Shown in pieces: positions 9,123 to 34,526 of a stretch of 64,000 nt of DNA; the stretch's first letter is position 1, and each line of letters opens with the position of its first letter. The notes under the pieces were generated by a model. That model ran no database searches. It was not told the origin of the DNA and saw only the letters and a program-made list of their open reading frames with translations. The position numbers were made by a program, and so were the translations under genes. Origin of the DNA: Clostridia bacterium (GTDB lineage Bacteria; Bacillota; Clostridia; Oscillospirales; CAG-272); NCBI GenBank assembly GCA_017467165.1, contig JAFTST010000051.1, positions 78,488 to 142,487 on the forward strand. The letters run 5' to 3'.

Positions 9123-9210
9123 ATAACCTCACAGCAAGCCCGCTTGCTTCATAGCTCGATGGGCTTATAGCTTTAATTTTATTTTAATGTGCGTTAAGAT
9201 AAAATGCGGT

Positions 9211-10389: not shown

Positions 10390-10435
10390 ACTATTTGAAA
10401 CTAATGTTTGAATAGATTTTTATTCCTTTAATGAA

Positions 10436-10570: not shown

Positions 10571-10581
10571 GCGTAGCAGAT

Positions 10582-11562
10582 TTATTCCCATTCTATTGTG
10601 CCAACGGGCTTTGGCGTTAAATCATATACTACCCTGTTAATTCCCTCAACCTCTTTGGTTATTCTATCGGTGATTCTGTGGAGTATGGGGTAGGGGATAT
10701 CCTCTACTGTTGCGGTCATAGCGTCGACCGTGTTAACCGCGCGGATAATAGCCGCCCAGCCCTCGTAGCGCTTTCCGTCCCTGACGCCGACGCTCTTTAA
10801 GTCGGGTATCGCGATAAAGTACTGCCAAACTCTTTCGGCAAGGCCGCAGCGGTCAAACTCCTCCCTGAGAATTGCATCAGCCTCGCGCAGAGCGTGAAGT
10901 CTGTCGCGGGTGATAGCGCCAAGGCAGCGCACGCCGAGTCCGGGGCCGGGGAAGGGCTGACGGTAGACCATCGCGTGCGGAAGTCCGAGCTCCTCGCCGA
11001 CAATCCTGACCTCGTCCTTATACAAGAGCTTGAGAGGCTCTACGAGCCTGAACTGCAAATCAGCGGGCAGACCGCCTACGTTGTGGTGCGCCTTAACTCC
11101 GTCGCTCTCGATAATATCGGGATATATAGTGCCCTGGGCGAGAAACTCAATGCCGTCGAGCTTTCTTGCCTCCTCCTCGAATATGCGGATGAACTCCGCT
11201 CCTATAATGGAGCGCTTTTCCTCGGGAGAGCTGACTCCCGCCAGCTTGTCAAGATATCTGTCGGTCGCATCAATGTAGATAAGATTGGCGTCGAGCTCCT
11301 TTCCGAAAATCTCTATAACCTGCTCGCTCTCTCCCTTTCTCATAAGCCCGTGATTGACGTGCACGCACACAAGCTGCTTGCCGACCGCCTTGATAAGAAG
11401 CGCGGCTACAACCGAGGAGTCTACTCCTCCGGAGAGGGCAAGGAGAACCTTTTTTTCTCCGACCTCTGCTCTTATGGCTTGAATCTGCTCGTCTATGAAC
11501 GCCTTGGCGAGCTCGGGGGTGGTGATGCGCTGCATTGCTTCGGGTCTTTTGTTTGAATTCAT
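10582..11562 (-). CDS. guaA: GMP synthase ATP-pyrophosphatase/dimerisation domains only (no GATase domain)
   Basis: PP-loop LALSGGVDSSV and the canonical C-terminus ...KPVGTIEWE. It is 326 aa versus about 510-525 aa for fused GuaA. Upstream is a divergent promoter region, not a GATase ORF. Confidence 0.85.
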   Translation of the reverse strand: MNSNKRPEAMQRITTPELAKAFIDEQIQAIRAEVGEKKVLLALSGGVDSSVVAALLIKAVGKQLVCVHVNHGLMRKGESEQVIEIFGKELDANLIYIDATDRYLDKLAGVSSPEEKRSIIGAEFIRIFEEEARKLDGIEFLAQGTIYPDIIESDGVKAHHNVGGLPADLQFRLVEPLKLLYKDEVRIVGEELGLPHAMVYRQPFPGPGLGVRCLGAITRDRLHALREADAILREEFDRCGLAERVWQYFIAIPDLKSVGVRDGKRYEGWAAIIRAVNTVDAMTATVEDIPYPILHRITDRITKEVEGINRVVYDLTPKPVGTIEWE

Positions 11563-11700
11563 GGGGAGAGCTCCTTTTGACTTGATTTATAAGGTAATTA
11601 TATAATATTATTTCCCTTATTACAAGATATTTTAGCAAGATAATTTAACAAAATGAGAAAAAATGAATATACAGAATAAGAGGAAAGAAAGGAGAAAAAT

Positions 11701-12252
11701 ATGCTGGTGATAAAGCAGTATAACAGAGAGCGGGCGGTGGAGTATGCGAAAAAATACGCCTTTTCCCAAAACCCAATATTCGGAAACTTCAGAGGCATCG
11801 GCGGCAACTGTACCAACTTCGTTTCCCAGGCGCTCTATGCGGGAACCTGCGTTATGAATTACACCAAGACGTACGGCTGGTATTATATCTCGCTTGACGA
11901 CCGCTCGCCGTCATGGACGGGAGTTGAGTATTTTTATAACTTCATAACCACGAACACGGGGGTGGGGCCCTTTGGCAGAGAGGTGTCTGCCGACGGAGCG
12001 TCGGTCGGCGATATAATTCAGCTCGCGAAAAACGAGGGCGGCTTCTATCACACTCTGCTTATAGTTGGCTATGAGGGAGAGGACCCCCTTGTTGCCGCTC
12101 AGACCGACGACGCCTACGCGCGACCGCTGTCAACCTATACCTTTGACTACCTGAGGTACATAAGAATAGACGGCGCGAGAATAGAGATAGAGGACAGCTC
12201 CGACTGCTATCAGAGCGTCTACGACGGAGTTGCCATAGTGCCTACGGCGTGA
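11701..12252 (+). CDS. Putative amidase-domain protein (Amidase_6-like cysteine peptidase fold)
   Basis: GGNCTNFVSQALYAG (catalytic Cys context), SWTGVEYFYNFI and YHTLLIVG motifs. AGGAGA RBS. Confidence 0.6.
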   Translation: MLVIKQYNRERAVEYAKKYAFSQNPIFGNFRGIGGNCTNFVSQALYAGTCVMNYTKTYGWYYISLDDRSPSWTGVEYFYNFITTNTGVGPFGREVSADGASVGDIIQLAKNEGGFYHTLLIVGYEGEDPLVAAQTDDAYARPLSTYTFDYLRYIRIDGARIEIEDSSDCYQSVYDGVAIVPTA

Positions 12253-12295
12253 GAATCAGAAGAACGGCTTTGGAGGAAAAGAGGAGTCAGATATC

Positions 12296-12328
12296 AAAAA
12301 CCGCAGAGGTGCTCTCTGCGGTTTTTTC
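12296..12328. terminator. Bidirectional rho-independent terminator
   Basis: AAAAA-CCGCAGAG-gtgct-CTCTGCGG-TTTTTT lies between convergent genes. Confidence 0.8.
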
Positions 12329-12353
12329 TTAAATTATGCTTTGGGGAGCTTGA

Positions 12354-14669
12354 TTATTTGCCCCACTTTTCCATAGGAACAATCTCGGAGTAGCCCTCGC
12401 CGTCAATCGCTACGGCACAGACGATTTTCGTAGCGTTCTTATGTACCACGAGAAGTCTGGTGTGGTCGTGTCTGTCGTACTCCTCGTCAAAGTTCGCGGT
12501 GGTGCTGAGAAGATAGGTATAGCAGTCAGAGAGCGCGAGCTCGCCGTCGCCGAGAAGGCGGACTGTGATACTCTTTCCGTCCTTGTGCGTGAGGGTGGCG
12601 GATTTCTTGTCCTCAGCGAGAGTGGCGGTGATTTCGGTGTTATTGAAGTGGAAAATGCCGTAGGCATCCTGAGGATATGCGAACTCTACCTCGTCCTGAA
12701 TAACAACCGTATTTCTGTCCTCGGTGATGAGCATTCCGCGCAGAGCAGACTTGACTGCGTCGCCGTAGACCTCCTTGTTGTCTATGATGGCATACGCGCC
12801 CTTTCCGCTGTGTACTCTCGTCATTCTGCCCGTTGCGCCGGGGAGCTGACCGTACTCGACAGAGGGCAGGCAGAGGGTGTTGTTACCCTCGGCGTTTCTG
12901 CGGTACAGGCAGTAGTTTTCAAAGTAGCGATGTACGTTGTAGTAATCGGGGCCCATATCGGTGAACCAGAGAACACCCTTGTTGTGATATACGAGAGAGC
13001 CCGAGTCGAGCTGGCTGTGGCTGGGCTCAACGGGGTTGTAGCCACCCATAATTCCCGCGTAGAGAGAGCCTGCCGCCCATCCGTTTCTGACAACGAAGGC
13101 GTCGATTCCCTCCATATAGTAGTCAAGGGGCATTTCATCGAGCTTGGGAATATTTCTTTCTCTTACCACGGGGCTGTATAGGAGCTCGAAGAGCGTGGGG
13201 TTCTTTCCTCTTTCGAGGTGAGAAATTCTGAGCGCGTAGAGCTTGTCGTCGCCGTTGACCGTGGCGAGCATATTGAACAGGGAGGAATCCTGCTGCTCAA
13301 GAAGACCGTCGTGATAATTCCAGCCCACGAAGTCGCAGGACTCGGAGCTGAGAGCGTAGTAGCAGGTTCTGTCAATTCCCGCGGAGAGCGAGATACCGAG
13401 GTCGGAGCCGATAGCGTCGTAGAGGACTGCTATGATTTTGAACAGCGACTCGGTGCCGTATGACCAGTAGTGGTTGGACTCGACGTAGGAGCCGTCGGGC
13501 ATATACAGCTTCAGGACGTAGGTCGGCTGAGTTATAGAGGTGAGGCAGGCGCCGAGAAGCTCGGTCATAATCTTTTTTTCCTCGTCGGTCGCGTGCTTCG
13601 AGGTGATGAGCGAAAGAATTGAAATTACAAGGCAGGAGTTGTTAACCGAGTTCCAGTTATCCTTCTTGTCCTTGTAGCGCCAGCCCGTAGCGTGATGATG
13701 CGTCGGGTAGGTGCAGGTGTCGAATATGAAGGACAGGAAGCCCTCGTAGATTCCGTTTCTGTACACTCCGCGATAGATGGCGCCGGCGTCGAGCCCCATA
13801 CCTTCCCAGGCGTCCTCCATCCAGTCGTACGCAGTGGCGAAGAAGCCGGCCGCGCCCGCGCAGTTGAGGAAGTGACCGGGACCCCAGTGCTTCATCTCGC
13901 ATACCGCCTTGGCGATAAAGTAAGCCTGTCTTGCATAATACTCGTTTCCTGTGATTATGTAAGCGAAGGACAGATGCATCGAGCAGGAGGCGATGGTTTC
14001 GGAGAAATAGTGTCTGCCGCCGATATCGTACAGGTCCTCGCCGTAGCCGTGGTGCAGGGGCTCGTTAAGGCCGTCGCCCTTCTCGTTGAGTCTGAACTCG
14101 GGCTTTTTCGAAATGTCAATGCATTGCTCGAGAACCTTCGTTATAGCTCTCTTGGTCAGACAGTCCTCGCCCTCGTATATAGCGCGGAGCTTGTCGAATA
14201 TATCCTTAGTGGTGAAGAGGTAGGGTCTTTTGGGAGCGCGGGCGTTAAGCATTCCGAGAACCTGCTCGCCTATGCGAACGAAGCCTGCTCTCTGCTCCTC
14301 GGTGCAGGGTGAGTAATCTCCCTTGAGCTTGATTCTCTCGAAATCGAATATAAAGGTATCCTGAACGTTGAGGAAATAATCCTTATCATCGTTGTGATTG
14401 AGCGAAAGAATACCCTCGTCGGAGTCGATAAGCACCAGTCCCGTGCTGTCTGCGTTGACGTATGCGCCGACAATCTCGCTCGTGTATTCCACGCCTTCGT
14501 GAGAAACCGTATTTCCGTGACCGAACAGTCCCGAAAGAGCGGATACCGGCAGATATACCTTGCCGTCCTTCTCAAAGGGAGCTCCCTCAAGAAGAACCTT
14601 CTTCTCATTAACCAGCGCCTTTCTCGTTCCGAGCCTGAGAGCTATCTTGGGTAAATTACGGGTTGACAT
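12354..14669 (-). CDS. Heparinase II/III-like protein, 771 aa, no signal peptide (paralogue of 4607..8704)
   Basis: AAGGAGG RBS. N-terminus has a stalk-like segment (KVYLPVSALSGLFG). Core motifs MKHWGPGHFLN, SHSQLDSGSLVYHNKGVLWFTDMG and YRRNAEGNNTLCL are collinear with the larger protein. Confidence 0.8.
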   Translation of the reverse strand: MSTRNLPKIALRLGTRKALVNEKKVLLEGAPFEKDGKVYLPVSALSGLFGHGNTVSHEGVEYTSEIVGAYVNADSTGLVLIDSDEGILSLNHNDDKDYFLNVQDTFIFDFERIKLKGDYSPCTEEQRAGFVRIGEQVLGMLNARAPKRPYLFTTKDIFDKLRAIYEGEDCLTKRAITKVLEQCIDISKKPEFRLNEKGDGLNEPLHHGYGEDLYDIGGRHYFSETIASCSMHLSFAYIITGNEYYARQAYFIAKAVCEMKHWGPGHFLNCAGAAGFFATAYDWMEDAWEGMGLDAGAIYRGVYRNGIYEGFLSFIFDTCTYPTHHHATGWRYKDKKDNWNSVNNSCLVISILSLITSKHATDEEKKIMTELLGACLTSITQPTYVLKLYMPDGSYVESNHYWSYGTESLFKIIAVLYDAIGSDLGISLSAGIDRTCYYALSSESCDFVGWNYHDGLLEQQDSSLFNMLATVNGDDKLYALRISHLERGKNPTLFELLYSPVVRERNIPKLDEMPLDYYMEGIDAFVVRNGWAAGSLYAGIMGGYNPVEPSHSQLDSGSLVYHNKGVLWFTDMGPDYYNVHRYFENYCLYRRNAEGNNTLCLPSVEYGQLPGATGRMTRVHSGKGAYAIIDNKEVYGDAVKSALRGMLITEDRNTVVIQDEVEFAYPQDAYGIFHFNNTEITATLAEDKKSATLTHKDGKSITVRLLGDGELALSDCYTYLLSTTANFDEEYDRHDHTRLLVVHKNATKIVCAVAIDGEGYSEIVPMEKWGK

Positions 14670-22621: not shown

Positions 22622-23992
22622 TTAAATAACCCTCACGTCGTCGCGGTCAAGTCTGACGTCCTCCTTCGGAATCCTCCTTCCCGATACAAGAAGAAAAACA
22701 ACCGACAGCAAGAATGCCACAAGCTCTGCGATAGGCAGACACCACCAGATAATACTGACGTCAAACAGAGAAGGCAACAGAAGAGCAAGACCGATAGGAA
22801 GCAGAATGCCTCTGAGCAGAGAGACCGTGACCGACATCTTCTGCATCAGAACCGACTGGTGAAAATAACTCGCCACCACGGTAACGCCCATCAGGGGAAG
22901 CGCCAGACAGTACACTCTCATTATAGGAGGGCCGATGAGCATAACGTTTTCGTTGACCTCCATAAATAGTCGAAGAATCTCGGCGGGGAAGAGCTCTACC
23001 ACGGCGAGAAAGACCACGCCAAGCACGGTGCCGCAGATAAGCGCCGCCTTGAGCGATGCTCTGACTCGGCCCCACCTTCCCGCGCCAAAATTCGCAGACG
23101 CTATGGGCTGGAGGGCTGAGCCCGCCGCGTTAATAACGCAGGTGAGCATAACCAGAAGTGTGGAAACCGTGCCGTAGACGGCAAGGTGGTCGTAGCTCAG
23201 GTGCTTGATAATCTGCTTGTTGAAAACCATAGCGGTGATACCGAATGCGACCTCCAGAACGAAGGCGGAAAAGCCGAGGGAGAATATTCTCGCACCCTTT
23301 CTTGCAACACGGGTGGGCTTTTTTAGCCTCAGGGTACAGCCTTTTCTGAAAAAATAGGACAGCACGATAAGAAAGGCAACAACCTGACCTGTTGCCGTCG
23401 CTATGCCTGCACCCGCGGCGCCAAGACCCGCGCCGAAGTCGAAGACGAGAAGAATATCGAGCACGACGTTAACAACGCCGCCCGTTACCGTGGCTATCGT
23501 CGGGAGCATTGCCTCTCCGTCGTTTCGCACGTAGGTGGAAAGACAGACGCATATAGTGAAGGCGGGGCTGACAATCGCGATGCTTCGCATATAATCCATA
23601 GAAAGCGTGAGCACCTCGCCCTCAGCCTCAAAATAGCGGAGAAGCGGCTCTGAGAAAAAGAGAAAGACAAGAGCTATCGCCACCGAAAAAACCAGAGCGA
23701 TAAGCGCGCCGAGGGTGAAGTATTCATTTGCCGCGGCGCCATTTCCGCTACCGCGCCTGTTGGCTATCATAATAGCTCCGCCAACGCCCACGAGAACACC
23801 CGGGGCAATCATTATAGACCACATCGGATTGATACAGGCTATCGCTGACGCACCGAGCGGGCCGCAGTACTGACCGACGCATATCATATCCACCGTGGAA
23901 TATATAGTCATAATTATAGTGCTTCCCGCCGCGGAGAGAAAGAGCAGAAGGAACATTCGGTTTATCTTATCCGATAGGAGATTAACCTTCAT
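22622..23992 (-). CDS. MATE-family efflux transporter
   Basis: 456 aa, about 12 TM helices, MatE-like repeats. 4-nt overlap with the upstream Gx transporter gene. Confidence 0.75.
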   Translation of the reverse strand: MKVNLLSDKINRMFLLLFLSAAGSTIIMTIYSTVDMICVGQYCGPLGASAIACINPMWSIMIAPGVLVGVGGAIMIANRRGSGNGAAANEYFTLGALIALVFSVAIALVFLFFSEPLLRYFEAEGEVLTLSMDYMRSIAIVSPAFTICVCLSTYVRNDGEAMLPTIATVTGGVVNVVLDILLVFDFGAGLGAAGAGIATATGQVVAFLIVLSYFFRKGCTLRLKKPTRVARKGARIFSLGFSAFVLEVAFGITAMVFNKQIIKHLSYDHLAVYGTVSTLLVMLTCVINAAGSALQPIASANFGAGRWGRVRASLKAALICGTVLGVVFLAVVELFPAEILRLFMEVNENVMLIGPPIMRVYCLALPLMGVTVVASYFHQSVLMQKMSVTVSLLRGILLPIGLALLLPSLFDVSIIWWCLPIAELVAFLLSVVFLLVSGRRIPKEDVRLDRDDVRVI

Positions 23993-24489
23993 CTTGACCC
24001 CTCCAACTTAACTCTCTTGATAAGAAGAGCGGACGCCACGCCGACAGCAATGCCCGCAACGGTTCCCGACAGCAGAAGGAAGGGCAGATAATAGACTATG
24101 ATATTGGTTTCAAGCAGAAGGCAGGCGACGCCAATCTGCGCGATGTTATGCGACACGCCTCCCGCTACGCTGACGGTGACTACTGCGAGCTTTGTGTATT
24201 TTTTGAGAAGGATTGTTACTATAAGGCTGAGTATCGCGCCCGCGAGAGAGTACCAGAGGCTGACGGTACTTCCGAAAAGTATCGAAACCAGAAGAACGCG
24301 AATTATTGAGATAAGCACGCCCTCGCGCGCGCCCAGCTTATAGACGGTGAATATCACCGCGATATTGGCAAGACCGACCTTTATACCCGGGATAGCTACG
24401 AAGGCGGGTATGCGCGACTCCAGAAAGGAGAGCACCATTGCCAGAGCGACTATCACGGACAGGGTGGCTAGCTTTTTAGTGTTTTTCAT
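23989..24489 (-). CDS. Gx transporter family protein (Hpre_diP_synt_I-type membrane protein)
   Basis: 166 aa, 5 TM helices. LSFLESRIPAFVAIPGIKVGLANIAVIF is typical of the family. Confidence 0.7.
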   Translation of the reverse strand: MKNTKKLATLSVIVALAMVLSFLESRIPAFVAIPGIKVGLANIAVIFTVYKLGAREGVLISIIRVLLVSILFGSTVSLWYSLAGAILSLIVTILLKKYTKLAVVTVSVAGGVSHNIAQIGVACLLLETNIIVYYLPFLLLSGTVAGIAVGVASALLIKRVKLEGSR

Positions 24490-24541
24490 CTATATTCCTG
24501 ACTGACACGCCCTCGCGTGCCCTGTTATTTTCAAGTTAAAT

Positions 24542-24937
24542 TCAGCTGACAAGGTCAACGCCGCCATCGGAGTCGCCGACGACGGTTATTGTAATTCTGT
24601 TTGGCAGACAGATAATGCTCTGTCCTGTGTATTTGATTTTTCCGGTGTTGACACAGGTCTTGTCGGGGCAGTTGGCGTACGAGAGATACGCAACGCCGTC
24701 CTGTATCACCAGAATGTTGGTGACCTCTCCCTCGGTATCGGGATTGGCTCCTCTCAGCTCATAGGTCGCGTCAAGGTGCAGCGGATATTCGCCGACGAGC
24801 TCGCCGTCGACCGTTACCCTCACCTTTTCTCCGTTTTCTCTTGTCATAAGAGTCAGGGAGAGCGACGCTATGGCGATAACGAGAAATATGGAGATAATGA
24901 TGATGTCTTTTCTATGCTTTTTCAAAAGCTCGCGCAT
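24542..24937 (-). CDS. NusG domain II-containing protein (DUF1312), membrane-anchored
   Basis: N-terminal TM helix. VTVDGELVGEYPL...ANCPDKTCVNTGKI...SIICLPNRITITV matches the NusG_II pattern. Confidence 0.75.
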   Translation of the reverse strand: MRELLKKHRKDIIIISIFLVIAIASLSLTLMTRENGEKVRVTVDGELVGEYPLHLDATYELRGANPDTEGEVTNILVIQDGVAYLSYANCPDKTCVNTGKIKYTGQSIICLPNRITITVVGDSDGGVDLVS

Positions 24938-25009: not shown

Positions 25010-25822
25010 TTAAAAATGCGCGCCGCAGATAAAGTTGCCCTCGTGTATGCAATGAACGGGGCAGACCGCGACACAGGCGCCGCAGCCGGTACACTTCGAA
25101 TAATCTATTACAGCAAGGTTGTCGATGACGTGGATAGCGTCGTGAGGACAGGTCTTTTCGCACTTCCTGCAGGCGATACAGCCGTTGGTGCAATTCTTCC
25201 TCGTCACAGCTCCGGTGTCGTGGCTGGAGCACTCGACGACGACCCTCGAGGTGTCGTTGATAAGGTGGAAGAGTCCGTGAGGACAGGTCCTCGTGCAGAT
25301 GCCGCAGCCGATGCACTTTCTCGGGTCAACCCTGGCAACTCCGTCCTCAACTCTTATAGCGTTGGTCGGGCAGGTGTTGACGCAGTCGCCGTAGCCGAGG
25401 CAGGCGTACATACAGCTTCTGTCGCCGTTGTAGGCGATATCTGCGGTGCGGCAGGACTTCTGTCCAACGTAGTCGAACTTCTTCTTGACAACGTCACACT
25501 TTCCGTTGCAGGCAACGTAGGCAACCTTCTCGACAACGTCCTCCGCCTCAACTCCCATGGTGTCAGCGATAGCCTTAGCTGTACCGTCGCCGCCGGGGAT
25601 ACAGAGGTTTGTACGTGTTTCGGTGCCCTCGGAGAGAGCCTTCGCATAGCCGTCGCAGCCCGAGTAGCCGCAGGCTCCGCAGTTAGCTCCGGGAAGACAG
25701 TCGCGGATAGCTACCGCGCGCTCGTCCTCCTTGACAGCGAAGAATATAGAGGAAACGGTGAGAAGAACGGCGGCTATAATGCCGATTCCTGAAAGAAGCA
25801 AAATAGCAAATAAAATATCCAT
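25010..25822 (-). CDS. rnfB: Rnf complex subunit B (polyferredoxin)
   Basis: N-terminal TM helix, CLPGANCGACGYSGCDGYAKAL cluster and multiple CxxCxxCxxxCP motifs. Confidence 0.9.
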   Translation of the reverse strand: MDILFAILLLSGIGIIAAVLLTVSSIFFAVKEDERAVAIRDCLPGANCGACGYSGCDGYAKALSEGTETRTNLCIPGGDGTAKAIADTMGVEAEDVVEKVAYVACNGKCDVVKKKFDYVGQKSCRTADIAYNGDRSCMYACLGYGDCVNTCPTNAIRVEDGVARVDPRKCIGCGICTRTCPHGLFHLINDTSRVVVECSSHDTGAVTRKNCTNGCIACRKCEKTCPHDAIHVIDNLAVIDYSKCTGCGACVAVCPVHCIHEGNFICGAHF

Positions 25823-25833
25823 CTGTTACCTCC

Positions 25834-26424
25834 TTAACCAAGCATACCCTTTACAACACCATCAAAGCCAAGAAATGCCATCGCAACGATGGATGCAGCA
25901 ATGAGAGTGATGGGCAGACCCTTGAAGGGCTTCGGCGAGGGGCAGTTCTCGATGCGGGTACGAACACCTGCGAACAGGAGCATAGCAACGAGGAAGCCGA
26001 TACCAACGCCGACAGAGGAAACCATCGAGGTGATGAAGTCATAACCTTCCTTAACGTTGGTTTCCGCAACGCCAAGCACCGCACAGTTGGTGGTGATAAG
26101 CGGGAGATAAACGCCAAGCGACTTGTAAAGCGAGGGGATAAACTTTTTGAGGATAATTTCAACAAACTGAACAAGTGAAGCGATAACGAGGATGAAGACG
26201 ATGGTCTTCAAGAACTTGATATCAAGAGCCTCAAGTGCCTTGTAGATGGGCCAGGTGACCGCCGATGCGCAAAGCATAACGAAGATAACCGCAAGACCCA
26301 TACCAAATGCTTGCTTATACTTCTTCGAAACGCCGAGGAAAGGGCAGATGCCCGTGGTTTTTGCAAGGACGATGTTGTCGGTAAGAATACCGGCAAGGAG
26401 GACGGTGAGTAATGATTTAAGCAT
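25834..26424 (-). CDS. rnfA: Rnf complex subunit A
   Basis: TDNIVLAKTTGICPFLGVSKK N-terminus, 6 TM helices. Overlaps rnfE by 8 nt. Confidence 0.9.
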   Translation of the reverse strand: MLKSLLTVLLAGILTDNIVLAKTTGICPFLGVSKKYKQAFGMGLAVIFVMLCASAVTWPIYKALEALDIKFLKTIVFILVIASLVQFVEIILKKFIPSLYKSLGVYLPLITTNCAVLGVAETNVKEGYDFITSMVSSVGVGIGFLVAMLLFAGVRTRIENCPSPKPFKGLPITLIAASIVAMAFLGFDGVVKGMLG

Positions 26425-27208
26425 TTTCGTCTACCTCCTTATTTTCAGTGGAACTCTCTTCTGCATCTGTTGCAAGCTCGGTGATTTCGGAGCAAGAGGT
26501 CTTGGTGCAAAGGTGTGCGGATGGGCAGCCGTCGCAGGAGAAGCTCTTGCGCTTGACGCCTCCCTTCTTGGCGGTAATCTTATTCATAACCGCGATAAGA
26601 ATACCGAACACGAGGAATCCGCCGGGAGCCTTCGCAAGAATCGGAATTCTGAAGTCATAAACCATAGTGCCGTCCTCGGCTATCTTAAACAGAAGGTTGA
26701 TGGGCTGTACATTGAAGGACTCAAGGCCCTTGAGAATGGTGCCCTCGCCGAGAATCTCGCGGAAGATTGCCATTGAGAGAAGTGCAACAAGGAAGCCGAT
26801 ACCCATTCCTAGACCGTCAAGAGCAGAGTCAAGGGGGTTGTTCTTTCTTGCGAACATTTCCGCACGTCCAAGGACGATACAGTTTACAACGATAAGTGGC
26901 AACCAGATGCCAAGCAGGTTGTAAATAGGCTCAACAAACGCATGCAGAAGCATCTCGACAAGCGTAACAAACGCCGCAATAACAACGATGTAGCAGGGGA
27001 TACGAACCGTGTCGGGAATAATCTTACGGAGAAGGGAGATAACGACGTTGGAGCCAAGAAGCACGACGGTGGCGGCAAGGCCCATAGAGATTGCCGATAC
27101 AATGCTGGTACTTACCGCAATCGCGGGACAGGTACCGAGCACGAGGATAAGAACGGGGTTTTCCGCGATAATACCGCGAAGAAAAATAGAAAGCTTGCTC
27201 TTATTCAT
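26417..27208 (-). CDS. rnfE: Rnf complex subunit E with a ~45-aa Cys-rich acidic C-terminal tail
   Basis: AENPVLILVLGTCPAIAVSTS motif. Extra tail KRKSFSCDGCPSAHLCTKTSCSEITELATDAEESSTENKEVDENA. Confidence 0.85.
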   Translation of the reverse strand: MNKSKLSIFLRGIIAENPVLILVLGTCPAIAVSTSIVSAISMGLAATVVLLGSNVVISLLRKIIPDTVRIPCYIVVIAAFVTLVEMLLHAFVEPIYNLLGIWLPLIVVNCIVLGRAEMFARKNNPLDSALDGLGMGIGFLVALLSMAIFREILGEGTILKGLESFNVQPINLLFKIAEDGTMVYDFRIPILAKAPGGFLVFGILIAVMNKITAKKGGVKRKSFSCDGCPSAHLCTKTSCSEITELATDAEESSTENKEVDENA

Positions 27209-27229
27209 TTTTGTTCTCCTTTCGCGGTG

Positions 27230-28534
27230 TTATATTTTTTCGGTCAGCTTCAGGAATGCATCAAATGCATCGAGAACTGCATTGTGGTAATAAACGGTGG
27301 TGAAGGTTGCGTTGGCAATGATACCGGGACCCTGAATGGAGCTCGGCAGATTGTCGGTCTCGTAGCCGTTATCCTCGTTGGGAATAATGTCGGAGATGTC
27401 AAGGTCAAGAATCTGCTCACGGGTTGCACCGCGGAAGCTCTCGTAGAAGGCTTCGGTTGCACAGTTTGCACCGTAGTTCTTGGACTCGCCGTGCTTTGTG
27501 GTAATGATGTCGATAATCTTGCCGTCAGCACCGATAGATACGGTGAACTGAATCTTGCCGCTGCCGTGGCTGTACTCTCCTTCATCAGCGTAGCTGCCGG
27601 TGGTCTCCATCTCGAATACGTATGTGCCACCCGCGGTAACGTATGCCTTTTTAACGGTAGCCTTTGCACCGTCGGGAAGTGCAATTTCGGTGGTAGCTGC
27701 GGTCTGGAAGATAGTGTATGCCGCCTCAACTGCCGCGATGTCCTCGGCGGTGGTTGCGACCTTTTCTGCCTTCTTGTCAAGCTTAGAAACGGTGTCGGTG
27801 ATGCTGCCGTCAGCCTTCACACCGATAAGCTTGTCGCCGATAACCATTACAATACCATCGGCGGTGGCGGATGTGGTGTAGATTGCATCGATGCCGGTGA
27901 TAATAGCGGTAGCAAACCACTTTGTAAACTTCTTTCCCTCGACATCAAGGACAATGTTAAGGTTGTCTGCAAATACCTCGTCATCGGTACGTGCGTCCTC
28001 ACCCTTAAGGGAGGAGAATGCGCGGAGTGCCGCGTCCACAATAAGTGCACAAGCCTCGGAGGATACGGTGGAGCCGGCGATGATAACAGGGGAAAGATTG
28101 TCCTTGTTCTGACCGTTGTACTTACCCTTGTTGCCCTCAATGGCGTTAAGCACACTTTGAATCTTGTTAGCGGTATCGGTGTTGGATACAACCTTTACGC
28201 CGGTGATTTCGCCGTCAGCATTTACACCGACAGCAATCTTGATATCGCCGCCGTAGCTTCCGGTTACGCCGATGAATACATAACCGCCTGCGGATGCGGA
28301 GTGTACCTCCTTAATCTCTGCGGGAATGCTGTATTCTACAAGCTCTTCTGCGGCGAGCTTGGTAAATTCGACGTCGTTGCCGCTGTTATATGCGGAGTAG
28401 AGAGCAGCCTTTGCCTTTCTTTCCTCCTGCTTTGCAATCGCGGGCGCGGTGATGATGTTCACACAGCCGAGAAGGAGAGCGACGATGATACAAATTGAGG
28501 TGAGGACGATAGTGGGCTTAAACTTAGCAAACAT
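27230..28534 (-). CDS. rnfG: Rnf complex subunit G, expanded (434 aa) with two FMN-binding-like modules
   Basis: N-terminal TM anchor. Module 1 is GSYGGDIKIAVGVNADGEITGVKV...IIAGSTVSS. Module 2 is GSGKIQFTVSIGADGKIIDIIT...IIANATFTT. TAATG overlap with rnfD. Confidence 0.85.
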   Translation of the reverse strand: MFAKFKPTIVLTSICIIVALLLGCVNIITAPAIAKQEERKAKAALYSAYNSGNDVEFTKLAAEELVEYSIPAEIKEVHSASAGGYVFIGVTGSYGGDIKIAVGVNADGEITGVKVVSNTDTANKIQSVLNAIEGNKGKYNGQNKDNLSPVIIAGSTVSSEACALIVDAALRAFSSLKGEDARTDDEVFADNLNIVLDVEGKKFTKWFATAIITGIDAIYTTSATADGIVMVIGDKLIGVKADGSITDTVSKLDKKAEKVATTAEDIAAVEAAYTIFQTAATTEIALPDGAKATVKKAYVTAGGTYVFEMETTGSYADEGEYSHGSGKIQFTVSIGADGKIIDIITTKHGESKNYGANCATEAFYESFRGATREQILDLDISDIIPNEDNGYETDNLPSSIQGPGIIANATFTTVYYHNAVLDAFDAFLKLTEKI

Positions 28535-29508
28535 TATGCGTTACCTCCCTTCTTCGCCTTTTTGCTACCAAGTGCCTTGGGTGAGGTGAGAATCTCGATG
28601 GGGGTAGCAAGAATGTTCATTATAAGAATAGCGTAGGAAACACCCTCGGGATAGTTTCCGAAGAAGCGGATGACAACCGTGATAAGCGCGCATCCGAGCG
28701 CGAATACCGCCTTGCCCCACTTGTTAAGGGGAGTGGTTGCGTAGTCGGTTGCCATGAAGAAGGCGCTGAGTATCAGACCGCCGCCAAGCAGCTGGTAGAC
28801 CGAGGCGTTAAGGTCAAAGCCCGTGAGTGCCAGCGAAAGCAGGAAGGTCGCGCCGATGAAAATTGTGGGTGTGTGCCAGGATATAACTCTGCGGCACAGG
28901 AGATAAATTCCGCCTGCGACAAGAGCTATGGCGCAGGTCTCGCCGATAGCGCCGCCGCGGTTGCCAATAAGCATATCGAGAACAGAGGGGAGCTCCTCTG
29001 CGGCAGCCCCCGCCTTAATTGCAGAGAGGGGGGTAGCGCCGCTGACGAGCGTGCCAAAGCCTGTAGCCACGGGAGTCGTGGTCTCACTGAAGCAGATAAG
29101 CATGAAGATTCTGCCCGTGATAGCGGGGTTGGCGAAGTTGCAGCCGATGCCGCCAAAGAGGCATTTCACAACGACGATAGCGAAGATAGCGCCGAGCATA
29201 GTCTGCCACCAGACGTTACCCACCGTATCCTTCGATACGGGAAGGGTGAGCGCGAGAAGAAGACCGGTTACAGCGGCGGAGAGGTCGCCAATCGTCTGCT
29301 TTTTCTTAACTATAAGGTTGAAAACGAATTCGGAGCCAACCGCGCTTATCACCGACACCGCGATAATAACTAACGCAGGCCAGCCGAAAAATACCACAGC
29401 GGCGATTGCCGCGGGTGTGAGCGCGATAAGCATATCGAGCATAATTCTCTGTGTTCTCGCCCCGGAGTGAAGGTGGGGAGAGGTCGAAACTATTAGATTT
29501 TGAGCCAT
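28534..29508 (-). CDS. rnfD: Rnf complex subunit D
   Basis: VSTSPHLHS N-terminus and the flavinylation motif LVSGATPLS; polytopic. Confidence 0.9.
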   Translation of the reverse strand: MAQNLIVSTSPHLHSGARTQRIMLDMLIALTPAAIAAVVFFGWPALVIIAVSVISAVGSEFVFNLIVKKKQTIGDLSAAVTGLLLALTLPVSKDTVGNVWWQTMLGAIFAIVVVKCLFGGIGCNFANPAITGRIFMLICFSETTTPVATGFGTLVSGATPLSAIKAGAAAEELPSVLDMLIGNRGGAIGETCAIALVAGGIYLLCRRVISWHTPTIFIGATFLLSLALTGFDLNASVYQLLGGGLILSAFFMATDYATTPLNKWGKAVFALGCALITVVIRFFGNYPEGVSYAILIMNILATPIEILTSPKALGSKKAKKGGNA

Positions 29509-29520
29509 TTTTCTTCTCCT

Positions 29521-30858
29521 TTACTTCATATCCTTCATATGGGCGCGGTATTCTCTGACCACACCCTTGGCGAGGCGGTTGTTCTGCACGAGAGGACGGA
29601 GGGCAGGGCAGACGAAGGAGCAGCAGCCGCACTCCATACACAGATTTATCTTATATTCCTCAAGTCTTGCTATCTTGTCCTCCTTGGACTCGATTTCAAG
29701 AGCCTTGGAAAATGCGGTGGGGTTAAGACCCATGGGGCAGGCCGCCACGCATCTGCCGCAGTGGATGCAGGGGGTAGCGTCGCCCTTGATGGACTCCTCG
29801 CGGGTCATAACGGTCAGGGCGTTGGTCGTCTTCATAACCGGCTCGTCGAGCGAGCTGACGGGAACACCCATCATAGGACCGCCGTAGAGCACCTTTCCGA
29901 CCTTTTCGGTGTCGCAGCCGACGAAGGCAAGAACGTCGCCGATATGAGTGCCGACAGGCGCTGTAACGTTCATAGGAGCAGAGATTGCTCCGCCGTCAAC
30001 CGTGAAGGTCTTTTCAACCAGCGGCATACCCGTTCTCACGTAGTCTGCGATAGTGGCGAGCGTGTTGACGTTGATAACTATAACTCCGACGTCCGCGGGG
30101 AGCTTGCCCTCGGGAACGACGATACGGGTGGTGTTGTGAATGATGATTTTTTCAGCTCCCTGGGGATACTTCGCGGGAAGAACGCATATCTCAACGCCCT
30201 CGATATCTCCGACGGTCGCCTTAAGAGCCTCGATAGCATCCTTCTTGTTCGACTCTATTCCGAAGACGACTCTCGTTACCGTCCCTGCGTATTTTTTGAA
30301 AAGAAGCACGCCCTCCTTGACGGAGTCGATTCTTTCCAGCATCGTTCTGGTATCCGCGGTGATATAGGGCTCGCACTCCGCCGCGTTGACAACCACGGTG
30401 TGAATTTCTCCCTTTTTCAAGGCGTCGAGCTTGACTGCGGTGGGGAAGCCCGCGCCGCCAAGTCCGACTATACCGGAATTCCTGACAGCCTCGATAAGAC
30501 TCTCAAGGTCTGTAATCTCGGGCGGAGCAATACTCTCGTGGGGCGTCATTTCTCCATCGCTCTGGATGCGGATTGCCTGCACGGTTGTTCCGTTGGGGCA
30601 GAGGTATGGCTCTACCTTAAGCACTTTTCCCGAAACGCTGGAGTGTACAGCAGAGGAAACGTATCCCGACGGCTCTGCTATGCGCTGTCCTACCTTGACC
30701 TCCTCACCCGCCTTGACGATGGGGGTTGAGGGAGCGCCGAGCTGACCGCCCAAAGGAATGAGCACCTCGGCAGCAGAGGGCATCTTCACCGATGGCGTAG
30801 CCGCGGTATTCTTGCGATGGGGGACGGGCGTGTTGCCCAAAAACTTAAACCCAAGCAT
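29521..30858 (-). CDS. rnfC: Rnf complex subunit C
   Basis: GLGGAGFPTAVK, CIHCGRCVAACP and CMECGCCSFVCP motifs. Start set to ATG 30858 (GGAAGGAA RBS) rather than the track start at 30915. Confidence 0.9.
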   Translation of the reverse strand: MLGFKFLGNTPVPHRKNTAATPSVKMPSAAEVLIPLGGQLGAPSTPIVKAGEEVKVGQRIAEPSGYVSSAVHSSVSGKVLKVEPYLCPNGTTVQAIRIQSDGEMTPHESIAPPEITDLESLIEAVRNSGIVGLGGAGFPTAVKLDALKKGEIHTVVVNAAECEPYITADTRTMLERIDSVKEGVLLFKKYAGTVTRVVFGIESNKKDAIEALKATVGDIEGVEICVLPAKYPQGAEKIIIHNTTRIVVPEGKLPADVGVIVINVNTLATIADYVRTGMPLVEKTFTVDGGAISAPMNVTAPVGTHIGDVLAFVGCDTEKVGKVLYGGPMMGVPVSSLDEPVMKTTNALTVMTREESIKGDATPCIHCGRCVAACPMGLNPTAFSKALEIESKEDKIARLEEYKINLCMECGCCSFVCPALRPLVQNNRLAKGVVREYRAHMKDMK

Positions 30859-30947
30859 TTGAAAATTCCTTCCGTTTCTATTGCCGACAGCTTGTCTTTT
30901 CACGCGCGTCGGCAAAATATTTTTTATTTTTATATATTATCTTATAT

Positions 30948-30977
30948 ATTATATCCTAGAAGACCTTTATATGTCAA
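30948..30977 (-). promoter_or_regulatory. Candidate sigma-A promoter of the rnf operon
   Basis: Minus strand reads TTGACA (30977-72), 18 nt, TATAAT (30953-48). Confidence 0.6.
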
Positions 30978-31062: not shown

Positions 31063-31097
31063 CGAAAAAAAGGAAAGCGCCGTAGTCAACGCTTTCC
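31063..31097 (-). terminator. Terminator after apbE
   Basis: GGAAAGCG...CGCTTTCC stem with an A7 run on the plus strand. Confidence 0.7.
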
Positions 31098-31123
31098 CTT
31101 GTAACTTGGCTGTGCTGTGCTTC

Positions 31124-32182
31124 TTATCCACCGATTTCGACTATCCCGTCGGTCTTGATAAGCCGTCCGTCGCGCGTTATCCAGATAACGTCAACCTTGG
31201 CATCGATTTTCCCGAGCATTTCAATGCCTCGGTCATAATCCACGCAGAAAAGAGCGGTGGAAAGCGCGTCGGCAAGCCCCGAATCCTCGGTGATAACCGT
31301 CACGGCGGAGAAGTATGCCGCGGGCATCAGGGTGTCGGGGTCAATGATGTGGTGATACCTCGTGCCGTCGACAACGTAGTAGCGCTCGTAGTCGCCCGAG
31401 GTGACGCAGGCGGTCCTGCCAAGAGATATTATCGTGGCGAAGTCTGCACTCGTTTTGTCAGGGTTGGTTATTCCGGTTTCCCAGCCCTCGCCGCCCGGCT
31501 TCAGACCCAGAGTGCGGATATTTCCGCCTATGTTGAGCGCGACCGAGTCAGCGCCCATAGCCTTCAGCCTTTCGTACAGTCTTTCGGTGGCGTAGCCCTT
31601 GCCGATAGCTCCGACGTCAATCGAAGCCTCGGGGTCGGTTATATACACCGTGCCTGCCTCGCGGTCAATCACGAGGGAGTCAATAGACGTGTGCTTGTCA
31701 GCCTCAAAAAGCTCCTCCATAGCGGGCACTGACGCCGCTGTCGGATCATACTCGGCGTCCTCTCTGTGATTGTGCCAAATTTGTAGCACGGCTCCCATCA
31801 TAACGTTGGTTTTGCCGCCCGTCAATGTATATAATTCTTTACAGTACTCGAGAAAGTCGATAAGCTCCGCGTCGACCTTGACGGGCTCCTTGCCCGCCTT
31901 CCCATTAACCGTGCGCAGATTGTTCATACCGCTGTAATCGAAGTAGATGTCAAAGAGCCTGTGATAATATCCGAGCAGCTTCTTTGACTCGTCGAGGTAT
32001 GCTTCAAGCGTCGCATCCTCTATATCACCGACAACGGTGAGGCTTGATGTGGTGTTGAAGTAGGTGTAGGATATGGTGCGACCCCTCGCCTGCTCCTTCT
32101 TGTCCCCTGCGCAGGAGAGGAGCGATAGCGTCAGGGATAGGATAAGAGCCGAAAGGATTATTCTTGAGATTGTTTTTTTCAT
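31124..32182 (-). CDS. apbE: FAD:protein FMN transferase (ApbE/Ftp), lipoprotein
   Basis: Lipobox LSLLSCAG. Motifs IDVGAIGKGYATE and YHHIIDPDT. Confidence 0.9.
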   Translation of the reverse strand: MKKTISRIILSALILSLTLSLLSCAGDKKEQARGRTISYTYFNTTSSLTVVGDIEDATLEAYLDESKKLLGYYHRLFDIYFDYSGMNNLRTVNGKAGKEPVKVDAELIDFLEYCKELYTLTGGKTNVMMGAVLQIWHNHREDAEYDPTAASVPAMEELFEADKHTSIDSLVIDREAGTVYITDPEASIDVGAIGKGYATERLYERLKAMGADSVALNIGGNIRTLGLKPGGEGWETGITNPDKTSADFATIISLGRTACVTSGDYERYYVVDGTRYHHIIDPDTLMPAAYFSAVTVITEDSGLADALSTALFCVDYDRGIEMLGKIDAKVDVIWITRDGRLIKTDGIVEIGG

Positions 32183-32242
32183 TCTTTCTTTTCTCTGTTC
32201 ATATTTATAGCGCCGCTTGGCGTACCTAAGAATATTTTACTA

Positions 32243-32270
32243 CAAAAAAGGGACCTTTTCAAGTCCCTTT
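32243..32270 (-). terminator. Terminator after the lipoprotein gene
   Basis: AGGGAC-cttttcaa-GTCCCT stem flanked by an A6 run on the plus strand. Confidence 0.65.
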
Positions 32271-32302
32271 AATGCTTTATTCGAATATGACCTATCGAAA
32301 AA

Positions 32303-33280
32303 TTATCTTGCGTTGCCAGCCGCGCGAACGAGAGCCGCCTTGTAGCCGCCTGTATAGATGGTGCAGCCTGCAACACCCTCGGTAGCGATGTCGTTAAGCT
32401 CTGCTACGGTCTTGCCAACGGTGGAGTTAGCATAAGCCTGAGCCTGAGCGTACCATCTGCCTGCCGCCATAGGCTGCCAAGCGTCGTATGCGTCGCCCTG
32501 CTCATTCTTGGTTCCCTTGTACTCGGAAAGAGCAACCTCGAGCGCGGGAGCGCCGTTCTTATCGCCGATAGTGAGAGTGTACTTACCCTCAGCGGAGTCG
32601 AGCATAGAAGCCACAACCTTGCCGCCTGCTACTGCAACTGCAGCAACGTCAACAGCTATCTTGCCGCCCTTTTCTACGGAGCCGGAAACTGCCGCGTCAA
32701 TTGCAAGACCAAGAGTGATAGTCTCGGTGGTGGTGAAGGTTACGTTACGTCCGTAAGCGAATGCCTTAGCTACGAGAGCCTTGAATGCGGGAACAGACTG
32801 GTACATAGTGCAGCCTGCTACGAGCTTACCGTCCTTAACGTTATCCTCGGAAACGTCAAGTGCAGCAACCTCTGCAGCGGTCTTGCCAACGAGGAACGCC
32901 TCGAAAGCCTCTGCCTGCTTATCCCACTCTGCGATAGCGCCGCCGTATGCAACCATGCCGTAAGCCTCGCCAAGCTCGCGCTTGGTATCAAATCTTGCGG
33001 TTGCTACGATGTCGGTGCCGTCCTCGTTGAGAGCGAACTTGGGCTGAACCTCGTCAAAGCGAGCGGCAACTATCTTGCCGTCTGCATCGTACACGAGAGC
33101 GAGAGCGAGAGCGGAAGCGCCGCCTCTGCTGACAGTCTTGAGTCCCTCGTCTACAACTACGGAGAGGGTGTAGGTCTTAGCCTCGGGAGTAGGATCGTCG
33201 TTGTTGTTCTTGTTTCCGCAGCCAACGAGCATAAGTGCTACGAGAGCGAAAAGAAGAACGAGAGAAAGAATCTTTTTCAT
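32303..33280 (-). CDS. Lipoprotein with two tandem FMN-binding-like domains (PplA-like candidate flavoprotein)
   Basis: Start set to ATG 33280 (AAAAGGAG RBS; MKKILSLVLLFALVALMLVGCG lipobox). Internal duplication: TKRELGEAYGM...WDKQAEAFEAFLVGKTAAEV...VAGCTMY versus TKNEQGDAYDAW...AQAYANSTVGKTVAEL...VAGCTIY. Confidence 0.6.
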   Translation of the reverse strand: MKKILSLVLLFALVALMLVGCGNKNNNDDPTPEAKTYTLSVVVDEGLKTVSRGGASALALALVYDADGKIVAARFDEVQPKFALNEDGTDIVATARFDTKRELGEAYGMVAYGGAIAEWDKQAEAFEAFLVGKTAAEVAALDVSEDNVKDGKLVAGCTMYQSVPAFKALVAKAFAYGRNVTFTTTETITLGLAIDAAVSGSVEKGGKIAVDVAAVAVAGGKVVASMLDSAEGKYTLTIGDKNGAPALEVALSEYKGTKNEQGDAYDAWQPMAAGRWYAQAQAYANSTVGKTVAELNDIATEGVAGCTIYTGGYKAALVRAAGNAR

Positions 33281-33355
33281 TGTCTGAAATACTCCTTTTG
33301 TTATTTTATTTATATTATACTTAGTTTTCTGTCGCTTATACAGCGACTCCAGTAG

Positions 33356-33385
33356 ATAATAACACATAAGGTGGCGTCTTGTCAA
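33356..33385 (-). promoter_or_regulatory. Candidate promoter of the lipoprotein-apbE unit
   Basis: Minus strand reads TTGACA (33385-80), 18 nt, TATTAT. A 5'UTR hairpin GTCGCT-GTATAA-GCGAC follows. Confidence 0.5.
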
Positions 33386-33461: not shown

Positions 33462-34469
33462 TTACAGAAGTCTTATGCCCGCTCTCTGACAGCCCGCGAC
33501 GGTATCCTCGTCCCAGATGCTCGACTGCACCTCGCCTATATGAGCGCAGCCCATCATCAGCATACACAGGCGCGACTGACCGATACCTCCGCCGATAGTC
33601 AGGGGCAGCTCTCCTCTGAGAAGAGCCGAGTGGAAGGGAAGCGCCGCACGCTCCGTACAGCCTCTTATCTCAAGCTGTCTTTTCATCGACTCCTCGTCGA
33701 CCCTTATGCCCATTGAGGATATTTCAAGCGCCTTGCCGAGCACCTCGTCCCAGAACATAATATCTCCGTTAAGCTCCCAGTCGTCGTAGTCGGGGGCTCT
33801 GCCGTCGTGAGGCTCTCCGTTTGACAGCGGGGCGCCTATCTGCATTATCAGCACGGTGCCGTATTCCTTGGTTATGGCGTCCTCTCTCTCCTTTGGGGTG
33901 AGGGTTGGGTATCTTTGGAGAAGCTCCTCGGAGGTTATAGCGTACATTTTTCTTGTCAGACTGACCTTCGTCTCGGGAAAGCTCTCGCGGACAAGCTCAG
34001 AGGTGTCGCATATCGCCTCTACAATGGTTGCGGCGGTCTTAATAAGGTAGTCGAGCGTGCGCTCCTCTCTGGTTATAACCCTCTCCCAGTCCCACTGGTC
34101 GACGTAGATAGAGTGCGTGTTGTCGAGCTCCTCGTCGCGGCGGATAGCGTTCATATCGGTATAGAGGCCGTTGCCGACGTAGAAGTTATATTCCTTGAGG
34201 GCGAGGCGCTTCCATTTCGCCAGCGAGTGCACCACCTGTCCTGATTTTCTGACGTCGGGAATGTCGAAGCTGACGGGACGCTCGGTGCCGTTGAGGTTAT
34301 CGTTGAGTCCCGACTCCTCGGTGACAAAAAGGGGCGCGGAAACTCGGCGAAGGTTCATTTTCTCGGACAGCGCCGCCTGAAAATGCTCCTTTATAAATGA
34401 AATAGCCTTCTGCGTTCGGTATAAATCCATCGAGGAGCGATACCCCTCGGGAATAAATAGTCTGCTCAT
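33462..34469 (-). CDS. asnA: Aspartate--ammonia ligase
   Basis: MSRLFIPEGYRSSMDLYRTQKAISFIKEHF...RRVSAPLFV matches the AsnA N-terminus. Start ATG 34469 has an AAAGGA RBS. Confidence 0.85.
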   Translation of the reverse strand: MSRLFIPEGYRSSMDLYRTQKAISFIKEHFQAALSEKMNLRRVSAPLFVTEESGLNDNLNGTERPVSFDIPDVRKSGQVVHSLAKWKRLALKEYNFYVGNGLYTDMNAIRRDEELDNTHSIYVDQWDWERVITREERTLDYLIKTAATIVEAICDTSELVRESFPETKVSLTRKMYAITSEELLQRYPTLTPKEREDAITKEYGTVLIMQIGAPLSNGEPHDGRAPDYDDWELNGDIMFWDEVLGKALEISSMGIRVDEESMKRQLEIRGCTERAALPFHSALLRGELPLTIGGGIGQSRLCMLMMGCAHIGEVQSSIWDEDTVAGCQRAGIRLL

Positions 34470-34490
34470 CGGTAGTCCTTTCTTGTTGGT

Positions 34491-34526
34491 TAAAAGCCGA
34501 GGTCGAGCCATTGCCCGACCTCGACC
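34491..34526 (-). terminator. Terminator after the IMPDH gene
   Basis: CGAGGTCG...CGACCTCG stem with an A4 run on the plus strand. Confidence 0.55.

Follow-up and report, generated by a model that had tools for sequence, protein, structure and literature searches.

In a stretch of 64,000 nucleotides of Clostridia bacterium DNA (assembly GCA_017467165.1, contig JAFTST010000051.1, positions 78,488 to 142,487; the whole stretch is called the window below), a gene for a 325-residue lipoprotein, P0001, stands directly beside the gene for an ApbE flavin transferase and close to an rnf operon. Sequence comparison and gene neighbourhood point to this protein as an extracytoplasmic electron carrier that would be flavinylated twice, i.e. 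would bear two attached molecules of flavin mononucleotide (FMN), and a probability of roughly 0.7 can be given to this reading. That P0001 is a substrate of ApbE is considered likely, and a role in passing electrons from Rnf to the outside of the cell is held with less assurance than that. The searches described below support the description of P0001 as two divergent domains of the FMN_bind superfamily. It belongs to a large protein family, in which every member with an NCBI record is named 'hypothetical protein'.

The duplicated architecture can be read directly from the protein. Its two halves align with each other at 31% identity (E=2e-6, self-alignment), and both carry the blocks TK(R/N)E.G.AY, W..QA.A(F/Y) and VGKT.AE, followed by V-A-G-C-T-(M/I)-Y, in the second half in the context E-G-V-A-G-C-T. 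The initial annotation had described a 325-residue lipoprotein of two homologous halves, with the repeat blocks TK(R/N)E.G.AY...W...VGKT.AE in both and VAGCT at the end of each, and this description was borne out in all its parts. The start codon is preceded by the Shine-Dalgarno sequence AAAGGAG, and the signal peptide and lipobox (L-V-G-C), which were read by eye and without a predictor, place the protein outside the cytosol. The coordinate 33385, at which the region named in the initial annotation ends, is not the start of the gene: the start codon is the ATG at 33280, and 33385 is the first base of a -35 hexamer upstream of it. The 360-residue, TTG-started open reading frame (ORF) that reaches 33385 was rejected as the gene, being a spurious extension of the ORF into the promoter. 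The promoter and terminators that had been claimed for the gene pair are present as signals, but these, like all promoter- and terminator-like signals of the window, are consensus matches only.

The motif of the first half, V154-A-G-C-T-M159, is unchanged across 32 homologues that are 58-72% identical to P0001, in which the second site reads G-(S)-C-(T/S); some members of the family show G-S-C-S at this second position. More distant members are numerous, with more than 965 matches in a database clustered at 90% and at least 1120 representatives of 50%-identity clusters (both lower bounds), and the invariance among the 32 homologues, together with the size of the family, places the motif of P0001 beyond chance.

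Homology to FMN_bind was recognised mainly by profile searches. Two family profiles were built independently, A2 from 109 diverse two-domain members and A3 from 54 single domains that had been excised from genomic loci. Both match 2KZX_A in the PDB, A2 at E=2.1e-9 and A3 at E=1.7e-9, and both alignments place D..L-x-A-G-C-T-I of the family on D-A-I-S-G-A-T-I of 2KZX. Domain 1 of P0001 aligns to residues 55-126 of this structure. When P0001 alone was compared with the 2KZX fragment, BLASTP returned E=8e-10, and 67% of the residues are identical in a 27-residue block (YGMVAYGGAIAEWDKQAEAFEAFLVGK). On Pfam FMN_bind the fragment reaches 25.7 bits (cut-off 22), and 2KZX is listed among the PF04205 structures by Borshchevskiy et al. 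(PMC4348036), so that the profile and BLASTP matches amount to significant homology to a recognised FMN_bind member. 2KZX, an apo structure of an uncharacterised Clostridium thermocellum protein (PF04205) solved by nuclear magnetic resonance, is the closest solved relative and has its motif at the same column, but it is a single domain of 131 residues with the canonical D-A-I-S-G-A-T, whereas P0001 has two domains and A-G-C-T.

Weaker matches were also obtained. A domain from a protein with proven multiple flavinylation, 8P2B, is matched by the family profile at E=0.076, motif on motif, and an hhalign comparison with a canonical FMN_bind alignment (50 domains cut from 30 genomes) gives P=4e-4 and a probability of 35%, with AGCT placed on SGAT. 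FMN_bind is also the most frequent among the sub-threshold Pfam contacts of the family (8 of 109 members, best E=0.0035), and the hidden Markov model (HMM) of the family matches the second FMN_bind domain of an RnfG. The AlphaFold2 (AF2) model of the whole protein (pLDDT, the predicted local distance difference test, 86; predicted template modelling score, pTM, 0.82) and that of Domain 1 (pLDDT 87.7) are both confident. The order of secondary-structure elements fits the minimal FMN_bind scaffold, in which helices come after three strands and the motif opens the last helix.

The variation of the acceptor motif was followed in 563 domain copies aligned to the domain HMM, with counts taken from the 318 copies that belong to 50%-identity representatives. 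The acceptor position (0) is Thr in 288 copies and Ser in 30, and no other residue occurs. Position -1 is Cys in 262 (82%), Val in 40 (13%), Ala in 12 (4%) and another residue in 4; position -2 is Gly in 223 and Ser in 68; position -3 is Ala in 257 (81%), Ser in 40 and Thr in 14. Further upstream, Leu is found at -5 in 207 copies, Asp at -6 in 122 (38%) and Asp at -8 in 206 (65%). The motif of the family can thus be written D-x-(D)-L-x-[A/S/T]-[G/S]-[C/V/A]-[T/S]-[I/M/V], to be set beside the published flavinylation consensus D-x-x-[S/T]-G-A-[S/T], and a few members hold canonical SGAT, TGAT or AGAT at the same column. An invariant hydroxyl residue after a small apolar one is the pattern predicted for an attachment site. 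P0001 has Thr at both acceptor positions (T158 and T307) and Gly at both -2 positions (G156 and G305). In one test protein, flavinylation was abolished by exchange of the acceptor Thr for Ala and reduced by half (~50%) by G-to-A and A-to-V exchanges, while D-to-A had little effect (PMC12052999).

In ~17% of the domain copies another residue (Val, Ala, Ile or Met) stands at -1, which argues that Cys is not universally required there and that it behaves as a small hydrophobic residue and not as an obligatory catalytic one. The RnfG of the window uses I-I-A-G-S-T, with Ala at -3 and no Asp at -6 (RnfG and RnfD of this genome both lack the latter), and the window's ApbE is the only one found in the 1.38-Mb, 73%-complete metagenome-assembled genome (MAG); the only ApbE of the genome would therefore already serve non-canonical motifs.

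An apbE neighbour is nearly constant: of 37 homologous loci (27-70% identity), 36 have apbE directly after the lipoprotein gene. These loci come from MAGs and isolates of Eubacteriales, Oscillospiraceae, Faecousia, Flavonifractor, Fastidiosipila and Holdemania, mainly from animal guts. In a random sample of the phylum (61 genomes), seven genomes were strongly positive, and in all seven the gene, or a tandem pair of such genes, abuts apbE; Rnf is mostly not nearby in these. The pair has no Rnf genes nearby in L053, L093, L094 and L096-L098, and the explanation that the adjacency arises solely from the service of ApbE to Rnf was therefore rejected. In an unrooted tree of a small sample of ApbEs (n=57), a branch of length 0.85 (SH-aLRT, the Shimodaira-Hasegawa-like approximate likelihood ratio test, 100) separates all 43 lipoprotein-adjacent ApbEs from the remaining ones, among which the further ApbE copies of these genomes are placed. 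The adjacent ApbEs, from loci L001-L077, also score lower on Pfam ApbE than those of L078-L091 (about 204-228 bits vs 240-335), and this clade may represent a specialised transferase subfamily, judging from the tree and the scores. The regular pairing in loci and sample genomes, together with the distinct ApbE clade, is the association expected of FMN_bind substrates of ApbE, and the synteny survey of homologues that the initial annotation had proposed came out in its favour. Its description of the neighbour also held: a lipoprotein ApbE with GAIGKGYATE and HHIIDPDT beside rnf (Pfam ApbE E=2e-62, lipobox LLSC).

Several results nevertheless weigh against a doubly flavinylated carrier. P0001 itself has no match to Pfam FMN_bind even at E<=1 and so does not reach the gathering threshold; Pfam and NCBIfam scans assign it to no family, and what they do return (HpuA, DUF4969 and models of lipoprotein signal peptides) is noise. 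The significant sequence match to 2KZX is confined to the C-terminal half of the domain. Foldseek searches of the PDB with the AF2 whole-protein and Domain 1 models gave nothing at E<=0.001, and no FMN_bind structure, 2KZX included, is within the top 50 of either, although the test carries little weight, since structures within the FMN_bind family are heterogeneous (PMC4348036). Within the motif, both domains of P0001 have Cys in place of Ala at -1 and Ala in place of Ser or Thr at -3, and the Asp at -6 is replaced by Lys (Domain 1) or Glu (Domain 2); the motif Asp has been called essential for the ApbE of V. cholerae (PMC10722498). At the level of genes, ApbE often stands beside rnf just to serve RnfG and RnfD, and the adjacency in the window is weak evidence when taken alone. 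A strict tie between the ApbE clade and the lipoprotein was rejected, as the G027 ApbE lies in the clade with no family gene nearby; conversely, a family gene in Holdemania (L066) has no ApbE beside it. The similarity to FMN-binding proteins that the initial annotation had expected from profile or structure searches is therefore found by profile (2KZX, E~2e-9) and not by the Pfam FMN_bind scan of P0001 or by Foldseek, and the outcome is on balance supportive.

Some of the same observations would suit a lipoprotein that derives from FMN_bind and carries no covalent flavin, i.e. a non-covalent binder of flavin or flavin adenine dinucleotide (FAD) that might hand FAD over from EetB to ApbE, or a flavin scavenger. 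Such a protein could have a motif that departs from the canonical one at three positions and neither a Pfam nor a structural match, and its gene would be at home among the eetB-type FAD-export genes with which it co-localises. This is unlikely, however, given that the acceptor Thr/Ser is invariant (318 of 318) while its neighbours vary, which suits an attachment site and not a mere pocket; that a flavin wire accounts for versions with four to six domain copies better than a chaperone does; and that RnfG of the same genome has the similarly odd A-G-S-T. The least probable of the explanations considered takes the conserved Cys as the functional residue, in a thiol-based redox lipoprotein or one that binds a metal or persulfide, with the likeness to a flavinylation motif as a relic. 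The Cys is invariant in the clade of the window, is present in 82% of domain copies and is the only conserved Cys of each domain, but it is exchanged in the copies mentioned above, among them whole clades with S-T-A-T or A-S-V-T that keep both the ApbE neighbour and an operon of rnfC, rnfD and rnfG (RnfCDG). A single Cys per domain also cannot make a CxxC-type centre, and the Thr/Ser next to it never changes.

The gene adjoins rnf in most loci, and the close clade co-occurs with an RnfG of double length, so that a structural or assembly subunit of Rnf on the outer face, such as a scaffold on which the enlarged RnfG would rely, itself taking no part in electron transfer, has also been considered. 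It is very improbable, given that the pairing with ApbE survives in the loci with no Rnf nearby, that the gene has promoter-like and terminator-like signals of its own, and that its relatives include multi-domain and FMN_bind-fused forms. The doubly flavinylated carrier is the reading that is followed in the remainder of this text.

Coordinates of the genes and signals on which these arguments draw are collected in Table 1.

Table 1. Genes, domains, motifs and signals around the lipoprotein gene, in positions of the window
Feature	Position	Strand	Remarks
Promoter-like TTGACA-18-TATTAT, TG before -10	33356..33385	minus	11/12 consensus matches; upstream of the lipoprotein gene
Lipoprotein coding sequence (P0001), 325 residues + stop	32303..33280	minus	ATG 33280, stop 32303; signal peptide, lipobox LVGC, two FMN_bind-related domains
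Domain 1, residues 33-178	32747..33184	minus	Internal repeat, domain HMM, AF2 domain model; three beta-strands then helices
Motif 1, V154-A-G-C-T158	32807..32821	minus	T158 is the predicted FMN acceptor; aligns on S-G-A-T of 2KZX and 8P2B
Domain 2, residues 179-325	32306..32746	minus	Internal repeat, AF2 model, domain HMM; beta-strands longer
Motif 2, V303-A-G-C-T307, context E-G-V-A-G-C-T	32360..32374	minus	T307 is the predicted second FMN acceptor
Terminator-like hairpin + T-run	32247..32270	minus	Between lipoprotein gene and apbE
Weaker promoter-like site overlapping hairpin 32247..32270	32234-32262	minus	Consensus match
ApbE (FAD:protein FMN transferase), lipoprotein, 352 residues	31124..32182	minus	Pfam ApbE E=2e-62; lipobox LLSC
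Terminator-like hairpin after apbE	31069..31100	minus	Consensus match
Promoter-like TTGACA-18-TATAAT before rnfC	30948..30977	minus	12/12 consensus matches
rnfCDGEAB operon	25010..30915	minus	Pfam/NCBIfam
RnfC	29521-30915	minus	
RnfD	28534-29508	minus	Motif L-V-S-G-A-T
RnfG, 434 residues, two Pfam FMN_bind domains	27230-28534	minus	Motifs I-I-A-G-S-T-V-S-S and I-I-A-N-A-T-F-T-T, both non-canonical
RnfE	26417-27208	minus	
RnfA	25834-26424	minus	
RnfB	25010-25822	minus	
NusG_II protein, taken as EetA-like	24542-24937	minus	Pfam
PF07456 protein, EetB homologue	23989-24489	minus	Pfam

The lipoprotein gene of the window is followed, all on the minus strand, by apbE, rnfCDGEAB, the NusG_II gene and the PF07456 gene, and the Pfam FMN_bind domains of the 73%-complete MAG are confined to RnfG. 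The NusG_II protein is taken to be EetA-like, an assignment that PMC9973259 does not make and that has only the recurrent NusG_II-PF07456 gene pair in its support; on that assumption, the NusG_II and PF07456 genes fit the FAD-export pair of Listeria extracellular electron transfer (EET). Listeria EetB belongs to PF07456 and binds FAD as the ECF-S-like subunit of an energy-coupling factor (ECF)-type FAD exporter that supplies extracytosolic ApbE, and eetB is reported to stand next to rnf in 572 Clostridia genomes (both PMC9973259). In the window, the gene of the EetB homologue is overlapped by one for a multidrug and toxic compound extrusion (MATE) transporter, within 22622-24937 on the minus strand. 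On the other side, 5′ of the lipoprotein gene, lies an AsnA-type aspartate-ammonia ligase gene (33462-34511, minus strand), which is kept as a neighbour in locus L001 and not in L002 and is probably unrelated to the lipoprotein system.

Two arrangements of the Rnf genes accompany the family. In the clade of the window a full rnfCDGEAB with a long RnfG is found, and the long RnfG is common to the close relatives L001, L002 and L037-L050. In a distant clade of Oscillospiraceae, the operon reads NusG_II-EetB-lipoprotein-ApbE-RnfC-RnfD-short RnfG-small membrane protein, and here the lipoprotein motifs are D-L-A-S-T-A-T and D-L-A-A-S-V-T. This compact operon occurs in loci L051-L071 of Oscillospiraceae, Faecousia and Flavonifractor (e.g. 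L068, from Flavonifractor, at 6953-12448, and L054 at 5899-12227); its RnfG has about 190 residues, and the small membrane protein has about 150 and begins 'MKNKxYxLN...'. RnfE, RnfA and RnfB were undetectable in these Oscillospiraceae loci, even by phmmer --max. The RnfCDG module is thus a partial Rnf, and it differs from the two-subunit Nqr/Rnf-like systems of the literature. The link that the initial annotation had drawn to the expanded RnfG consequently holds for ApbE and for Rnf or RnfCDG modules in general, but not for the expanded RnfG in particular, which the distant homologues lack.

From these observations, a sequence of events can be proposed. The EetB-type transporter encoded after rnfB would export FAD to the outer face of the membrane, where the neighbouring lipoprotein ApbE would consume it and link FMN to two residues, Thr158 and Thr307, through a phosphoester bond. 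These are the last residues of the variant acceptor motif [A/S/T]-[G/S]-[C/V/A]-[T/S] (here V-A-G-C-T); their flavinylation would require that ApbE tolerates Cys at -1. The two domains of P0001 may pack into one two-flavin unit, as the AF2 pTM of the whole protein would allow. The membrane-anchored lipoprotein would then take electrons from the extracytoplasmic FMN domain or domains of RnfG, its presumed partner, and deliver them to extracellular or cell-wall acceptors, if the flow runs in this direction. In the RnfCDG-only operons, the lipoprotein is left as the logical electron output, and the chain would run from reduced nicotinamide adenine dinucleotide (NADH) through RnfC, RnfD and RnfG to the lipoprotein, with no other obvious outlet.

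A bolder extension of this scheme is doubtful. It holds that the family and its ApbE clade form a separate, co-evolving flavinylation system, in which a specialised ApbE would recognise a Cys motif (A-G-C-T) to which canonical ApbEs are poorly suited; the Cys beside the FMN-phosphothreonine would be functional, for instance in tuning the flavin potential or in coupling the redox chemistry of flavin and thiol on the surface of strictly anaerobic cells, and, with the RnfCDG-only operons, the whole would constitute an unrecognised route from NADH to the outside, common in gut Oscillospiraceae and Clostridia.

Among characterised systems, PplA of Listeria monocytogenes and the Cad lipoproteins of Enterococcus may be regarded as the closest functional counterpart of P0001. 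Like it, they are lipoproteins of about 310-325 residues with two homologous flavin-domain halves (PMC7074142, PMC9973259), their genes lie beside one for ApbE in a locus with an eetB (PF07456) homologue and a NusG_II gene (taken as eetA-like), and two FMN sites and a role as extracytosolic electron carrier are predicted in both. Lipoproteins of the PplA/Cad type are flavinylated by the ApbE homologue FmnB and act in extracellular electron transfer (PMC7074142, PMC9973259). Canonical SGAT motifs are found in PplA and Cad, both of which Pfam FMN_bind recognises, whereas P0001 has A-G-C-T and no Pfam match. The membrane module also differs, being Ndh2 with demethylmenaquinone (DMK) for PplA and Rnf in the window (RnfCDG elsewhere). 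Of the set that defines a PplA-type locus (ndh2, DMK-synthesis genes, eetA, eetB, fmnA and fmnB), the window has ApbE, the EetB homologue and the NusG_II protein, while the genes inspected from 22.6 to 34.5 kb include none for Ndh2, DMK synthesis or FmnA.

RnfG and NqrC share with P0001 the extracytoplasmic location, an order of beta-beta-beta then helices, and an acceptor Thr, a predicted one in P0001, where the last helix begins. They are served by ApbE, and P0001, beside its ApbE, is a proposed substrate of the same kind. They differ from it in being anchored by a transmembrane helix as integral parts of their complex, with a single domain and, in most organisms, the canonical motif, whereas P0001 is a lipoprotein.

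At the level of the family, the best match by description is the FMN-bind2 subtype that Huang, Meheust, Barquera & Light described (2024, mSystems; PMC11334425), which forms pseudo-symmetric two-flavin units, occurs in even copy numbers and has no InterPro entry. The family described here likewise has a domain of about 147-165 residues (by HMM; FMN-bind2, ~160), extended predicted beta-sheets and no InterPro or Pfam entry, and both are found in Erysipelotrichaceae and Firmicutes. Its domains come in two copies per protein in 246 cases, four in 11 and six in 2, with odd counts in 9 (259 of 268 even), and the pTM given above would be consistent with a two-flavin unit. The family is therefore probably the FMN-bind2 subtype; the two examples of that subtype, NTW96865.1 and WP_312031774.1, are not among the accessions of the family's cluster members. 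The FMN-bind2 paper (PMC11334425) is silent on a Cys-containing motif, a dedicated ApbE clade and an RnfCDG operon, and a literature search found neither follow-up work on FMN-bind2 nor any mention of a Cys-containing ApbE motif, a distinct ApbE clade or an RnfCDG operon.

Other members extend the range of architectures. The relative P0240 is a fusion of a canonical FMN_bind domain with a domain of the family. In Fastidiosipila sp. (L053, 1333-4257), a protein of 975 residues repeats the domain six times in tandem, each time with A-S-V-T, and is a candidate six-flavin 'wire'; its gene lies between those for NusG_II and EetB and that for ApbE, followed by unrelated ATP-binding cassette (ABC) transporter genes. 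Two further multi-domain relatives, P0122 (983 residues, from a Sphaerochaetaceae MAG) and P0127, contain 16-18 Cys, and a simple pattern search found neither a G-C-T nor an SGAT string in them, their motif columns not having been inspected individually. One homologue is called 'ABC-type amino acid transport substrate-binding protein' by the Joint Genome Institute (JGI), a label that was discarded, as no profile supports it.

The sequence evidence supports the view that this family is a divergent, unannotated branch of the FMN_bind substrates of ApbE, with A-G-C-T as its acceptor motif. Surveys of ApbE flavinylation relied on the Pfam models FMN_bind, DUF2271 and DUF3570 and on the motif [S/T]GA[S/T], and the family escapes both. 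If the reading is true, the accepted acceptor motif would widen to [A/S/T]-[G/S]-[C/V/A]-[T/S], which would be useful for the engineering of flavin tags, and many Rnf operons of gut Clostridia would gain an extracytosolic electron outlet. The operon of EetA-like NusG_II protein, EetB, lipoprotein, ApbE, RnfC, RnfD and RnfG would then be a candidate NADH-driven system for extracellular electron transfer, carried by abundant and mostly uncultured gut anaerobes.

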